From the NCBI GenBank assembly GCA_963528625.1, contig CAURVQ010000005.1, forward strand, positions 1 to 64,000: a stretch of 64,000 nt of DNA, written 5' to 3'. Positions 330-4,632 of this stretch are shown here, piece after piece. Within the stretch, counting starts at the first letter, position 1; each line of letters opens with the position of its first letter. This DNA is from an uncultured Leptotrichiaceae bacterium. GTDB lineage: Bacteria; Fusobacteriota; Fusobacteriia; Fusobacteriales; Leptotrichiaceae. The notes beneath the pieces are model-generated. The model had not been told where the DNA came from. It searched no databases and saw only the letters and a program-made list of their open reading frames with translations. Position numbers and translations under genes: made by a program.

Positions 330-716
330 TTATCTTAAAGATTGAATTATTCTAAATTCTTCAATAGTTTTCATTTCTTTTTCCATTTCTTTAGCTAATT
401 CCATTTTTAATGATTTATATTCAGCAGCTTTATCTTTAAATTCTTTATTGAATATAGCTTTACTTGCTTTAGAATTAATTTCATCTATTCTTTGAGAAAC
501 AACCATATCCATTTTTTTATAATTTTCTAATCTTTGAGCAGCTGCATTTGCTAAAGCTTCTTGTTCTCTATATTTTTGATCTTCTAATTGAGTTAATTTT
601 TCTAATTGAGCTTCTAATCTACTTAAACTTGTTTCTACTGAATTTTTTTCTGGTGCTGCCATTGCTAAATTAGATAACATTAACGCACTAATTACTAAAA
701 TTATTTTCTTTTTCAT
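330..716 (-). CDS. Small secreted coiled-coil protein, FadA-like adhesin family candidate
   Basis: 128 aa. N-terminal signal peptide (MKKKIILVISALMLSNLAMA|AP). Remainder is heptad-rich and alpha-helical. Size and C-terminal ...EEFRIIQSLR resemble Fusobacterium FadA (~129 aa precursor). Confidence 0.45.
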   Translation of the reverse strand: MKKKIILVISALMLSNLAMAAPEKNSVETSLSRLEAQLEKLTQLEDQKYREQEALANAAAQRLENYKKMDMVVSQRIDEINSKASKAIFNKEFKDKAAEYKSLKMELAKEMEKEMKTIEEFRIIQSLR

Positions 717-721
717 AATTA

Positions 722-1102
722 TTAATTTCCTCCTTTTAATGTTATTATCGCATTGTAATCGTCTACTGTTTTAGTTAATGATTTTATTTCTGAATCTAAA
801 GTAGTTACTACTGCTTTATATTCTTTAACAATTCCAGCATATTCTGTTTGATAATATTTTGTTGAACTTGCTGATTGTAATTTAGCTATTTTTTCTTCTA
901 ATTTAGTTTTTAATGCTTTTTTACTTTCTAAATCTGCACTAACTGTTTGTGCGTTTGATACAATTTTAGCATATTCTTGACTTTCAGTTTGATCTAATTG
1001 TATTAATTCACTTTCCAATTTTTGAAATTTTGCTACAACTGAATCATAATCAGCAAATGAAACAGAACTTAACGCTACTAATAATACTAATATTTTTTTC
1101 AT
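722..1102 (-). CDS. Small secreted coiled-coil protein, FadA-like adhesin family candidate
   Basis: 126 aa. Signal peptide MKKILVLLVALSSVSFA|DY. Coiled-coil. C-terminal ...DYNAIITLKGGN resembles the FadA C-terminus. Confidence 0.45.
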   Translation of the reverse strand: MKKILVLLVALSSVSFADYDSVVAKFQKLESELIQLDQTESQEYAKIVSNAQTVSADLESKKALKTKLEEKIAKLQSASSTKYYQTEYAGIVKEYKAVVTTLDSEIKSLTKTVDDYNAIITLKGGN

Positions 1103-1219
1103 ATATCCCTCCTAAATTTTTATACATTATTTATTCTATGTAATTATATATTATATAAACATAATTGTCAATTTTTATTTTAAATTATACAATTATAAAT
1201 TCATAATTTTAATAAATTT

Positions 1220-1765
1220 CTATTTACTTAATTCATCTTCTGTTAATTCTAATCTGAATTCAATTCTTCTATTTTGGAATCTTCCTTCTTTTGTATCATT
1301 TGTAGATACTGGATCTTTTTCTCCCATCGATGAAGTTCCTAAAATTCTAGCTGGGTTCAATCCTAATTCAATTAATTTAGCTTTTACACTATCTGCCCTT
1401 CTTTGCCCTAATTCCATATTATATTCATCCGATCCTTGAGAATCCGTATGTCCTACAATTTCCATATTATAGTTATAAAATTCAACATATTTTATAATAT
1501 TTCTAAGTTTATCATAATATTCAGGTTTTACATTTGATTTATCAAAATCAAAGTTTAATGCCTGTGCATCTAACACTATTGTAACTTTTTTTGGTGGAGT
1601 TACTACTTTTTCTTTTATTTTGTCTATATTTAAAGTTTCTATTTCTAATGCATTTATTCTTATTGAATTTTCTCTTATATCAGTAGTTGTTAATTTTCTA
1701 GCATTTCCTACAACTGATACAACTAACATTAACATTAACAATATTATTTTTGTTCTTCTAACCAT
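1220..1765 (-). CDS. OmpA/Pal-like peptidoglycan-binding protein (OmpA C-terminal domain)
   Basis: 181 aa. N-terminal hydrophobic segment. C-terminal OmpA_C motifs: VGHTDSQGSDEYNMELGQRRADSVKAKLIELG and NRRIEF. Confidence 0.75.
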   Translation of the reverse strand: MVRRTKIILLMLMLVVSVVGNARKLTTTDIRENSIRINALEIETLNIDKIKEKVVTPPKKVTIVLDAQALNFDFDKSNVKPEYYDKLRNIIKYVEFYNYNMEIVGHTDSQGSDEYNMELGQRRADSVKAKLIELGLNPARILGTSSMGEKDPVSTNDTKEGRFQNRRIEFRLELTEDELSK

Positions 1766-2022
1766 TTTTCAGACTCCTTCTCCAATGACTTATATTGTTT
1801 ACTATAGTCAATTTCACCTTTTTCTTTTAATTTATCTAAGTTTTTAGAAGGATTTACAAATTTATTACTTTCTAAATATTTTTCAATTACATCTAATCTA
1901 TCTTTATTATATTTTACTACCTTTGTATTTGTACATGATACTGCTAAAAGTCCTAATATTAACAATAATATTTTCTTCATACTTTTTCTCCTTTTAAAAA
2001 TTATATGTTTAAAATTCCCCAA
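1744..2022 (-). CDS. Small lipoprotein, hypothetical
   Basis: 92 aa. Lipobox LLAVS-C after MKKILLLILG. Charged K/E-rich mature part. Overlaps the next gene by 22 nt. Confidence 0.5.
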   Translation of the reverse strand: MGNFKHIIFKRRKSMKKILLLILGLLAVSCTNTKVVKYNKDRLDVIEKYLESNKFVNPSKNLDKLKEKGEIDYSKQYKSLEKESEKWLEEQK

Positions 2023-2030
2023 ATATTTTT

Positions 2031-2609: not shown

Positions 2610-2639
2610 TATAATTCTCCTCTCAATATATTACTATAA

Positions 2640-3254
2640 TTATTTTCCTAGTCCTTTCACTTTTGGAATTTTATCATACTTACTTTTTTTATTTGCTTCC
2701 TCATTTTCTTTTTTCAATTCTATTTCTTCTCTCGCAACACTTCTTACAACTCTTTCATAAAAATCAACTTTAACTGCTGATTCTGCTGACAATTCTTCCA
2801 ATCTTTCTAACTGTGTTTTAGGAATAACTTTTTCTCTTGCCACACTTGTAGTTTCTTCTTTCATTGTTTCTAATCTAGGATTAACTTCTGATTTATTATT
2901 TTTTTTTGTAACTTCTTGTGCTTTCTTTTGAGAGGCAATTTTTTTCTTTTCTTCTTCCTTTTTAATTCTAATAGCCTTCGCTTCTTGCTCTTTAATCATT
3001 TTTTCTTGTCGTGCTTGTTCCTCTTGTTTCAATTTCATAGCTTTTGCTTCTTGTTCTTTAGCTAATTTTTCTTGTTTTGCTTTTTCTTCTGCTTCCATTT
3101 TTGCTTTTTTTTCTGCTGCTTTTTTCTCCATTATAATAGCTTCTTGCTCTTTATAATAATTTTCTCTCACTTTTTTTAATAAATTTTGTGGAGTATCTGC
3201 CATTACTTGCGTACTTATAACTAATAATGAACCAATTAACAATACTTTTTTCAT
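2640..3254 (-). CDS. Secreted K/E/Q-rich repeat coiled-coil protein (paralog of preceding gene)
   Basis: 204 aa. Signal peptide MKKVLLIGSLLVISTQVMA|DT. Imperfect repeats KEQEAKA... Confidence 0.6.
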   Translation of the reverse strand: MKKVLLIGSLLVISTQVMADTPQNLLKKVRENYYKEQEAIIMEKKAAEKKAKMEAEEKAKQEKLAKEQEAKAMKLKQEEQARQEKMIKEQEAKAIRIKKEEEKKKIASQKKAQEVTKKNNKSEVNPRLETMKEETTSVAREKVIPKTQLERLEELSAESAVKVDFYERVVRSVAREEIELKKENEEANKKSKYDKIPKVKGLGK

Positions 3255-3306
3255 ACTTTTTTACTTTAATAGCGATTATTCAGCTACTCTCCTTTCATAT
3301 AATATA

Positions 3307-3684
3307 TTACTGCATACTTACTAATAGTTTTTCTAACTCTGAAATTTTTTGTTCTCTTTCTAAAATATTTTTTGTTATATTTTTATAATACGCTTCATAC
3401 TCATTTAATAATTTTTTATAAGCATCTCTGTGCCATCTTACTTCAGAATCTTTTCTTAATTTTTCTAACTTAACTTCTTTTCCTTTTTCTTTTTCTTTCA
3501 ACTCAATTATTTCATTTTTTAATTTTAATTTTTCATTTTCAAATTCTTTTTTCTTAGCTTCTTCTCGTTGAATTAAATCATTAAATTTTAATTCAATAGA
3601 TTGAAGTGTTGACATTATTTTTGTATCAGCTCCATAACTTAAACTGGCTAATAAAAGCAGTGATGTTATCAAGAATTTTTTCAT
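3307..3684 (-). CDS. Small secreted coiled-coil protein, FadA-like candidate
   Basis: 125 aa. Signal peptide MKKFLITSLLLLASLSYG|AD. Heptad-rich. Confidence 0.4.
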   Translation of the reverse strand: MKKFLITSLLLLASLSYGADTKIMSTLQSIELKFNDLIQREEAKKKEFENEKLKLKNEIIELKEKEKGKEVKLEKLRKDSEVRWHRDAYKKLLNEYEAYYKNITKNILEREQKISELEKLLVSMQ

Positions 3685-3831
3685 TTTTTATACCACCTTT
3701 TTTATTTTAATATTTTTTGTTTACTTATATTATTATAATAACATATTTTTTTAGTTTTATCAAATAAGTTATATTTATTTTTTATATTAAAATTTATACA
3801 ATTCACATTATATAATTAATAGAATTACTCT

Positions 3832-4632
3832 CTATTCTTTATTTATAAAATTCAACTTACCAAAATCTACATTATAGAATAATAACTCAACCCTTCTGTT
3901 ATTGTATCTTCCTTGTACTGTTTCATTCGTATCCATTGGTTCAGATTCCCCTTTTCCAGAAATTACTCCATATGATACTGTATCACTTAATCCATATTGT
4001 TTTAATAATTTAGCTACACTATTTGCTCTTCTTTCTGATAATTTTTGATTATATGCATCTGAAGCTGTTGAATCTGTATGCCCTACAACATCAATTGTTC
4101 CACCTTTTGCAAATTCATTTATAAATCTTGCAATACTTTCTAAATCTTTCACTTCAGCTGATGATGGTTCACCTTTATCTACTCTAAATCCATGAATGAT
4201 ACATTTTCTTTCTACATTTGAACAATTAAACGGTAATACTACTGTATCCATTTCTATTTTTGTTATTTCTTCTGGAGTTACTTTTTCTTCAACTTGCTGC
4301 ACTACTTTTGTTTCTGAGGGATCTTCAAATCCAAATAAATATAAATTTGTTTCATTTCCAAGTATATTTGTTTTTACAATTCTTTGTCCATAAATGATAT
4401 TGTATGTTTTACCTGTTTTTAACTCTCTCCAATTTACCATTGATTCATTAAAATGATAAACTTTATTGTCTTTATCAACACAAGTTACTCTTGTTCCATC
4501 AAAATTTCCTTTTTGACGTTGAACATCTGTCACTTTACAAGTTACAGTTTTTAATTTTTTATCATCTTTCACATTATTTTCTGCAAAAATCATAGTGCTA
4601 ATCCCCAATATTAACAACATTAATTTTTTCAT
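3832..4632 (-). CDS. OmpA C-terminal domain protein with N-terminal signal peptide
   Basis: 266 aa. VVGHTDSTASDAYNQKLSERRANSVAKLLKQYG and NRRVEL motifs. C-terminal half paralogous to the 21219..22310 OmpA protein. Confidence 0.75.
   Translation of the reverse strand: MKKLMLLILGISTMIFAENNVKDDKKLKTVTCKVTDVQRQKGNFDGTRVTCVDKDNKVYHFNESMVNWRELKTGKTYNIIYGQRIVKTNILGNETNLYLFGFEDPSETKVVQQVEEKVTPEEITKIEMDTVVLPFNCSNVERKCIIHGFRVDKGEPSSAEVKDLESIARFINEFAKGGTIDVVGHTDSTASDAYNQKLSERRANSVAKLLKQYGLSDTVSYGVISGKGESEPMDTNETVQGRYNNRRVELLFYNVDFGKLNFINKE

Follow-up and report, generated by a model that had tools for sequence, protein, structure and literature searches.

A composite eight-gene locus of FadA-family, OmpA-domain and lysine/glutamate-rich exported proteins in a probable Fusobacterium periodonticum-like bacterium

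Eight exported proteins encoded on one strand

We analysed a 64,000-nucleotide stretch of DNA (the window: contig CAURVQ010000005.1 of assembly GCA_963528625.1, positions 1 to 64,000, labelled as an uncultured Leptotrichiaceae bacterium) near the start of which eight small genes follow one another on the minus strand at 330-4632. An initial annotation of the sequence had read these genes as an array of paralogous FadA-like adhesins interleaved with OmpA-domain proteins. All eight open reading frames (ORFs) that it listed were confirmed. Three encode FadA-family proteins, two encode proteins with an OmpA C-terminal (OmpA_C) domain, two encode proteins rich in lysine and glutamate (K/E-rich), and one encodes a small lipoprotein. 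In our analysis the genes fall into three units: g8 by itself, a core cassette of five genes (g7 to g3) that resembles the front of a known type of autotransporter operon, and a pair of FadA-family genes (g2 and g1) with its own promoter. The genes are named g8 to g1 in their order of transcription, and the features of the locus are as follows:

g8, 3832-4632, minus strand: 266 amino acids (aa), exported, OmpA_C domain
Promoter-like site, 3735-3763, minus strand: TTGATA-17-TATTAT with TG, found by consensus scan in the 147-base pair (bp) gap before g7
g7, 3307-3684, minus strand: 125 aa, FadA-family, leader (FadA3-like) type, first gene of the cassette
g6, 2640-3254, minus strand: 204 aa, exported K/E-rich protein 'P2', cassette position 2
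g5, 2031-2609, minus strand: 192 aa, exported protein rich in lysine, glutamate and alanine, FAD-I family, cassette position 3
g4, 1744-1980, minus strand: 78-aa lipoprotein with its ATG behind GGAG, cassette position 4
g3, 1220-1765, minus strand: 181 aa, exported, OmpA_C domain, with neither barrel nor lipobox, cassette position 5
Sigma-70 promoter of the g2-g1 pair, 1143-1171, minus strand: TTGACA-17-TATAAT, matching the consensus at 12 of 12 positions (scan)
g2, 722-1102, minus strand: 126 aa, FadA-family, 'first' type of the tandem pair
g1, 330-716, minus strand: 128 aa, FadA-family, 'second' type, starting 5 nucleotides (nt) past the g2 stop
Intrinsic terminator, 267-293, minus strand: 10-bp stem followed by a run of T, found by scan and from the sequence, closing the locus after g1

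The spacing is less uniform than the tight packing first attributed to the whole array. The 3' end of g4 overlaps g3 by 22 nt and g1 follows closely on g2, but g8 is preceded by a 225-bp gap, g8 and g7 stand 147 bp apart, and the 117 bp that separate g3 from g2 hold a promoter. Likewise, the claim that each gene has a ribosome-binding site fits g4, whose ATG is preceded by GGAG, but not g6, which has no obvious Shine-Dalgarno sequence near its ATG. The listed start of g4 was a TTG codon giving 92 aa; because gene callers on identical contigs give 78 aa, this start is probably too long. The G+C content is approximately 25% around the locus and 28% over the whole window.

Export signals were judged by eye from the protein sequences, without a predictor program. 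The signal peptides that had been proposed for all eight products are borne out, as each begins with an n-region rich in lysine and arginine followed by a hydrophobic stretch. Seven of the eight signal regions close with an AXA-like site (IFA/E, SYG/A, VMA/D, SFA/D, GNA/R, SFA/D, and AMA/A, the slash marking the cut), and g4 has the lipobox LLAVS/C. The description of two K/E-rich proteins and a small lipoprotein also held, with a combined lysine and glutamate content of 45% in g5 and 42% in g6.

A five-gene cassette without its autotransporter

The core of the locus has close counterparts in other fusobacteria. The complete genome of F. polymorphum AP028644.1 carries the same six-gene string at two places (2.25 Mb and 2.43 Mb; loci L022 and L023), and the string is also found on a metagenome contig. 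It consists of a FadA-family gene (132-134 aa), a gene for a 160-aa protein, a FAD-I family gene (122 aa), a lipoprotein gene (82-83 aa), an OmpA gene (181-182 aa), and lastly a gene for a type Va autotransporter of 2187-2318 aa (BigA_3rd and Autotransporter domains). By blastp, g7, g6, g5, g4, and g3 pair one-to-one and in the same order with the first five genes of this string, with E values from 1e-9 to 3e-51.

The leader, g7, scores 48.5 bits against the Pfam FadA profile (PF09403; cutoff 28.5) and shares 43-44% identity with the F. polymorphum cassette leaders, which are FadA proteins of 132-134 aa (blastp, E 1e-32). Identity to the leader of cassette L108 is 51%, and a VRWHRDxYKKLL motif is common to g7 and the cassette FadA leaders in the alignment. 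The next protein, g6, has no family match in Pfam or NCBIfam. The region of its conserved C-terminal motif, KVDFYERVVRSVAREE, is 61-64% identical over 36 aa to the 160-aa product of F. polymorphum cassette gene 2 (E 1e-9), and its length differs by allele (174, 196, or 204 aa).

In the third position, g5 aligns over 100 aa at 37% identity (E 7e-12) with the F. polymorphum protein that NCBI names 'FAD-I family protein' (122 aa). Four of five g5 orthologues reach the cutoff of 35 bits on the NCBIfam FAD-I family model NF041845 (36.8-41.2 bits for L007, L010, L012, and L013; 34.2 bits for L006). The g5 protein has no cysteine and its signal ends in SFA/D, and it therefore does not carry the lipobox described for FAD-I of the radD operon; the FAD-I family protein of the F. 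polymorphum cassette likewise has no cysteine. Within g5 lies a tandem array of a 33-bp repeat (2195-2449) whose unit encodes 11 aa, EKEAKAKKIAA. The copy number of the repeat ranges from one to four among strains, and g5 lengths are 168, 181, 183, 190, 192, and 193 aa. The exact g5 protein of the window is absent from a collection of 15 billion proteins, in which the other seven proteins are present.

The lipoprotein g4 shares 57-58% identity (E 1e-29) with its F. polymorphum cassette counterpart of 82-83 aa, whose gene also overlaps the OmpA gene that follows it. This is a small family, with just 36 representatives among 1.84 billion proteins. Last in the cassette, g3 shares 47% identity over 168 aa (E 3e-51) with the OmpA protein whose gene stands directly before the autotransporter gene in F. 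polymorphum. The two OmpA C-terminal domains of the initial annotation were recovered in the Pfam search (PF00691; cutoff 27.2), at 81.1 bits for g3 and 54.5 bits for g8. The conserved OmpA_C motif GHTD...N..L...RA is present as GHTDSQGSDEYNMELGQRRADSV in g3 and GHTDSTASDAYNQKLSERRANSV in g8, with its alignment columns invariant, and the solved structures nearest to g3 are periplasmic OmpA_C domains such as those of PA0833, OprF, YiaD, and Pal.

To survey the cassette, metagenome contigs were scanned with an alignment of the lipoprotein, and ORFs were classified in the 80 loci returned. An autotransporter gene directly follows the OmpA gene in forty-nine of the fifty-one metagenome loci with at least 400 bp beyond that gene, and the FadA, P2, and FAD-I genes are found in twenty-five of the twenty-six with enough upstream sequence. 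The two exceptions among the fifty-one are L079 and L098, the latter reaching only 637 bp past the OmpA gene. L108 has the same arrangement as the F. polymorphum string, its cassette running into the N-terminus of an autotransporter.

In the window, the position directly 3' of g3 holds no autotransporter but 117 bp with a promoter, and then g2. A tblastn search with a cassette autotransporter gave no match anywhere in the 64-kb window, nor in three longer contigs that cover both allelic types described below (L001, L010, and L013), and the longest ORF in the window is 927 aa. Remnants of such a gene were looked for 3' of g3 and throughout the window, with no match. The sequence before g7 and the clear TTGACA promoters of the F. 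polymorphum cassette leaders had no element in common.

In F. nucleatum ATCC 23726, fadA3a and fadA3b are in operons with the T5a autotransporters C4N14_01915 and C4N14_01960 (PMC11005410). From leader length, species, and operon context we infer that g7 to g3, matched gene by gene to the F. polymorphum string, are the five-gene front of such a fadA3-type operon without its autotransporter.

Some further cassettes depart from the usual form. L079 (OGXA01000944.1; cassette at approximately 8424-10743) is a second, independent cassette with no autotransporter, on a contig of F. nucleatum type, where a liv-like branched-chain amino-acid ABC transporter takes the autotransporter's place. In L072 and L096, cassettes and autotransporters stand in back-to-back tandem, with a second FadA and P2 after the first autotransporter; the many fragmented autotransporter ORFs of L096 suggest a decayed or mis-assembled array.

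An old tandem pair of FadA subtypes

The FadA-like proteins of the initial annotation are members of the family, with g1 and g2 scoring 70.9 and 76.0 bits on PF09403. Together with g7 they cover the profile from position 1 or 2 to 96 or 99 of its 99 positions. The g2 protein aligns without gaps to mature FadA (3ETW residues 3-111; E 6e-6), and g1 is 50-54% identical to FadA-family proteins of 131-135 aa, several of which are named Leptotrichia 'FadA'. The helical hairpin that had been predicted for such proteins is found in the AlphaFold2 model of g1 (helices 27-84 and 90-127; predicted local distance difference test score, pLDDT, 84.8). The eight best matches to this model in the PDB are all FadA structures (3ETZ/3ETW/3ETX), with template modelling scores of 0.74/0.88 and root-mean-square deviations of 1.5-1.6 A. 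For g7, the hairpin is indicated by the profile match and the alignment.

The three proteins had been presented as paralogues of one array. Identity among g1, g2, and g7 is no more than 22-27%, and for each of them closer orthologues exist outside the locus. On both grounds a recent duplication was rejected as the source of the three genes.

The two genes of the pair occur together well beyond this locus. A g2-like gene followed by a g1-like gene lies directly after enolase in Leptotrichia contigs and in L019, an NCBI assembly of approximately 35% G+C, and no OmpA gene lies near these enolase-linked pairs. Because the pair occurs without OmpA in Leptotrichia, the clustering of FadA-like with OmpA-domain proteins, from which a tethered module had been suggested, is not general for the pair. 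The promoter of the pair (AAAAATTGACA-17-TATAAT) is conserved in each of the related Fusobacterium loci, as well as before the pairs next to enolase in L019 and Leptotrichia. The two subtypes also keep distinct C-termini, ...LKGGN (g2) or ...LKGDQ in the first type and ...SLR (g1) in the second. The conserved order, C-termini, and promoter in both lineages therefore indicate that the tandem arrangement of these two FadA subtypes is ancient, older than the Fusobacterium-Leptotrichia split, and that the pair is a self-contained and probably strongly expressed unit. The products of g2 and g1 may plausibly associate as a heteromer.

The subtypes also differ at residues that have drawn attention in FadA itself. 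The leucine-chain residues Leu14 and Leu76 of FadA presumably have a role in filament formation, and the availability of L14A and L76A mutant structures (3ETX, 3ETZ) suggests that these residues were probed as functionally important. At the low aligned identity, residue equivalences are approximate, but the L14 position is Leu in g2 and g1 and Ile in g7, and the L76 position is Ile in g2, Leu in g7, and Lys in g1. Across the pairs, the positions of L76 and L84 hold Ile or Leu and Val in the first type and a conserved Lys and Lys or Arg in the second. The g1 protein has Lys at both, and its Lys at the L76 position is kept in all second-type members.

Enolase-adjoining pairs were seen in the Leptotrichia-type contigs L017, L018, L106, and L107 and in L019 and L020 (NCBI GCA_041793015 and GCA_041827145). 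The first member of the Leptotrichia pairs has an N-terminal insert rich in threonine and lysine, bringing it to 142-144 aa. The 64-kb window has no enolase gene.

g8 resembles the major OmpA with its barrel replaced

The first gene of the locus, g8, encodes a signal peptide, an N-terminal domain of approximately 85 aa, a linker, a pair of cysteines, and the OmpA_C peptidoglycan-binding domain. Its C-terminal part (approximately 155 aa) is 57-63% identical to Fusobacterium proteins of approximately 360 aa that combine OMP_b-brl and OmpA domains. The window has an OmpA protein of this kind (21219-22310, minus strand; approximately 363 aa, barrel and OmpA_C), which matches g8 in phmmer with an E value of 2.4e-54. 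No relatives of the N-terminal domain were detected outside the eight-gene locus, and full-length relatives of g8 are confined to the same locus in close relatives. AlphaFold2 modelled g8 poorly (pLDDT 54.6), and the beta strands that it placed in the N-terminal domain are of low confidence. Judging from these alignments, g8 is a lineage-specific copy of the major OmpA in which the barrel has been exchanged for a small soluble domain.

The full and barrel-less versions of OmpA lie 17 kb apart in the same genome. CmpA and TpgA were considered as identities for the OmpA-domain proteins and rejected, as the scores are far under the cutoffs (g8 reaches 42.8 bits on the TpgA model NF047726, whose cutoff is 350).

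The block diverges as one island and is under purifying selection

The eight genes are found in the same order and with the same flanks, bounded upstream by an opp-like ABC importer and downstream by an ABC-2 exporter, in every related contig that we retrieved. The recurrence of the block between these flanks in numerous independent assemblies shows that it did not come together by chance in one of them. The exact window proteins are on many metagenome and NCBI contigs (with the exception noted for g5), and named members of the same 90% clusters, as well as close homologues, are annotated as Fusobacterium periodonticum. Scanning species-representative genomes with narrow peptide patterns from the g7 orthologues gave a single locus, in a metagenome-assembled genome (MAG) labelled 'uncultured Leptotrichiaceae' that has the same block. 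The MAG locus L016 (CALHVR010000059.1, 'uncultured Leptotrichiaceae bacterium') is a complete F. periodonticum-type locus with 74-91% protein identity, and its label is probably too coarse or wrong.

The related contigs are of two allelic types, the window type (L001-L006) and a second type (L007, L010-L016, and L024-L025). We compared the window type (L001) with the second (L013 and L014). Nucleotide identity is 93-99% in both flanks and drops to 66-88% over the block, with borders that fall exactly at the g8 start and the g1 end. The locus is thus a divergence hot-spot and not the invariant housekeeping block that the initial annotation had named as a possible outcome against its own reading. 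At the protein level, identity is highest in g4 (90-92%) and lowest in g6 (52-60%) and g5 (54-63%), with g8 at 82-83%, g3 at 79-83%, g1 at 78-80%, g2 at 74-76%, and g7 at 71-76%; the flanking genes have 91-98%. The divergence covers the block as one island, which shows that the three units, whatever the origin of each, are passed on together today.

The ratio of nonsynonymous to synonymous divergence (dN/dS) is 0.13-0.52 over the eight genes and 0.13-0.35 for g7 to g3, while synonymous divergence (dS) rises from 0.05-0.27 in the flanks to 0.25-0.74 in the block. In at least six alleles (window type, L007, L010, L013, L016, and L024), which differ by 12-34% in nucleotide sequence, each of the eight genes keeps an intact ORF. 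These values fit an old or imported allele on which purifying selection acts, and they do not fit decay. Strong positive selection was rejected as the cause of the island, since dN/dS is below one everywhere and dS is raised too.

Outside the block, a TGG-to-TGA change at window position 7707, relative to the near-identical L001, splits the gene for a 517-aa opp-like substrate-binding protein into two ORFs (6411-7598 and 7707-7964, minus strand); the cause is a nonsense mutation particular to this strain or, alternatively, an error in sequencing. In contigs of the second allelic type (L010 and L024), the upstream ABC importer is largely in fragments. An Rfam scan of the whole window had no match inside the eight-gene locus, hence no known small RNA (sRNA) family there. 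Elsewhere, and unrelated to the locus, it found two adjacent copies of the 6A RNA (RF02925; 41685-41790, minus strand) and a tandem glycine riboswitch (RF00504; 56929-57179, minus strand).

A composite envelope locus and its possible function

The explanation that we consider probable is a composite envelope locus in a Fusobacterium periodonticum-like organism, put together from the three units described above. The identity and architecture of the units are the part of this explanation that we hold with high confidence, and the mechanism is a tentative proposal. According to that proposal, g3 and g8 would bind peptidoglycan through their OmpA_C domains after Sec export, as predicted from those domains, and g4 would be anchored by its lipid. 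The long, K/E-rich, presumably helical g5 and g6 may bridge, span, or space the layers of the envelope, and the five proteins together (g3, g8, g4, g5, and g6) would form a periplasmic scaffold close to the outer membrane. In complete operons such a scaffold may support or tune the display of the cognate autotransporter and the export of its FadA-type partner. In the locus studied here it might act on autotransporters encoded elsewhere, or directly on the hairpins of g7 and of g2 and g1, themselves candidates for surface filaments or adhesins.

A functional connection of FadA-type proteins with type Va autotransporters is plausible because FadA secretion requires a Fap2-like autotransporter, according to a passage of PMC12153266 that cites Meng 2021. 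That purifying selection has kept g7 to g3 although no autotransporter accompanies them speaks for a function of the cassette itself, or for one that it can exert in trans.

Several points weigh against the composite-locus explanation. The C-terminal half of the window's own g5 has 33.0 bits on the FAD-I family model, under the cutoff of 35, and the K/E-rich make-up of g5 can inflate scores on that model. The name 'FadA3' for the cassette leader follows from length (131/134 aa), species, and operon context. The promoter-like site before g7 is weak evidence, as it is not kept in related alleles, where this gap is 97 bp. The transcription units were deduced from gaps and consensus scans, and the scaffold is modelled by analogy. 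Finally, deletions of rapA and rapB, in the related radD operon, gave no consistent adhesion phenotype (PMC7023056).

The first alternative is that of the initial annotation, in which the block is an array of paralogous FadA-like surface adhesins, tethered by the co-encoded OmpA proteins and serving mainly in host-cell binding. This has genuine attractions: three of the genes are true family members, g1 with a FadA fold; divergence in the block far exceeds that of the flanks, a common trait of surface-exposed loci; and FadA itself is a proven adhesin (10.1101/534297; PMC12153266). However, at 22-27% identity the FadA-like proteins are three old subtypes and not the product of a recent expansion, the g2-g1 pair does without OmpA neighbours in other genera, and the counterparts of g7 to g3 are operon partners of autotransporters. 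In place of one array we see three units of different origin. The divergence, too, with dS raised along with dN and dN/dS below one, has the look of an old or imported allele. Deletion of rapA (FadA2) caused no adhesion defect (PMC7023056), and g1 has Lys at the position of FadA L76. We regard the adhesin array as unlikely, though it keeps some standing.

A second alternative, which we think rather unlikely, treats the cassette as more than an accessory to an autotransporter gene. It would be an autonomous envelope machine that tethers the outer membrane to peptidoglycan and exports or assembles FadA-type hairpins, with g2 and g1 as its filament-forming cargo. If this were true, surface display of FadA-family proteins in this lineage would be independent of an autotransporter encoded in cis, and the orphan cassette would allow the accessory roles of FadA3, FAD-I, and OmpA to be dissected without the giant adhesin.

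The locus might instead encode a periplasmic quality-control or chaperone module, whose hairpin and coiled-coil proteins act as holdases in the manner of Skp/OmpH and never reach the surface. Homologous operons do belong to an envelope-stress circuit, as sigmaE with FoxI/FoxJ repression at the leader gene has been reported for F. nucleatum 23726 (PMC9546586, PMC11005410). The proteins all carry Sec signals with no recognisable device for outer-membrane translocation, and there are two peptidoglycan-binding domains. Within that circuit, however, inducing sigmaE lowers the expression of fadA operons in F. nucleatum, and their leaders fadA2 and fadA3 are targets of repression by the sRNA FoxI (PMC9546586). 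Cargo behaves in this way, and chaperones do not. FadA is found on the cell surface (PMC12153266). No protein of the locus matches Skp/OmpH, SurA, or another chaperone family in Pfam or NCBIfam (for OmpH/Skp, at E values up to 1), in agreement with the initial assignment to FadA and not to Skp/OmpH. We find the chaperone module improbable.

Least probable by our estimate is a decaying remnant, in which deletion of the autotransporter gene left its five leaders behind as functionless passengers: loss is the simplest history given an autotransporter in forty-nine of fifty-one informative cassettes elsewhere, divergence is greatest in g5 and g6, which also come in several lengths, and the adjoining ABC transporter is decaying, but g7 to g3 as well as g8, g2, and g1 are intact in every allele examined, dN/dS for g7 to g3 is 0.13-0.35, and the g4/g3 overlap and the ribosome-binding sites are retained.

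The Fusobacterium adhesins FadA, Fap2, and RadD are studied intensively for their links to colorectal cancer and preterm birth, and the published work on the FadA family, in the literature that we searched, has centred on FadA itself. The composite-locus explanation would leave the overall picture unchanged, as the locus is a variant of a known operon type, but it offers a modest and concrete handle on the role of the accessory genes. Five genes that travel with an autotransporter elsewhere are here a fixed cassette able to persist under purifying selection without it. The FadA family itself consists of old subtypes, two of which are kept as a putatively co-transcribed pair from Leptotrichia to Fusobacterium, hinting at a heteromer. 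Moreover, the block is an island of allelic divergence in otherwise near-identical genomes, which matters for strain typing and for vaccine or antibody ideas.

Comparison with known systems

The closest known systems are the fadA3-type operons of the F. nucleatum group. They share with g7 to g3 the five families, their order, the overlap of the lipoprotein and OmpA genes, and the export signals, at 37-64% identity. The differences are that those operons continue into an autotransporter, whereas here a 117-bp gap, a promoter, and the FadA pair follow, that the locus here gains g8, and that added K/E-rich repeats lengthen g5 (192 aa against 122 aa) and g6 (204 aa against 160 aa).

The radD operon, consisting of rapA(fadA2)/radA, rapB/radB, fad-I/radC, and radD (PMC7023056, PMC12186487), is a shorter relative of the cassette operon. 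Both have a FadA-family leader and a FAD-I family gene with small exported products, and in the radD operon a type Va autotransporter comes next. It differs in having four genes, with neither the lipoprotein of approximately 80 aa nor an OmpA gene, and in ending in radD, which is absent here. Deletion of fad-I in F. nucleatum raised radD expression several-fold and thereby increased adhesion (PMC7023056).

FadA itself (PDB 3ETW) shares with the proteins of the window a signal peptide followed by an antiparallel two-helix hairpin of approximately 110 aa, as seen in the g2 alignment and the g1 model. Its identity to the FadA-like proteins of the window is only 18-28%, however, and the window has a conserved hetero-pair, g2 and g1, of which g1 carries Lys at the positions of L76 and L84.

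The major fusobacterial OmpA, an eight-stranded barrel with an OmpA_C domain, has the linker, the conserved cysteine pair, and the OmpA_C domain in common with g8, which carries its domain of approximately 85 aa in the barrel's place.

Partners of a related kind are known from other bacteria, where the peptidoglycan-binding TpgA is encoded beside the trimeric autotransporter AtaA in Acinetobacter and the lipoprotein SadB beside SadA in Salmonella. Both of these adhesins are trimeric (type Vc) autotransporters with one accessory gene each, not five. The likeness to our locus is a small OmpA_C protein or lipoprotein that is an operon partner and anchors or displays the adhesin, and we offer it as analogy, not as evidence.

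Set beside these systems, the operon of cassette plus autotransporter is already known in the literature. What appear to be undescribed in the literature searched are its conserved form without the autotransporter, the FadA hetero-pair common to Fusobacterium and Leptotrichia, and the divergence island in which both are found.

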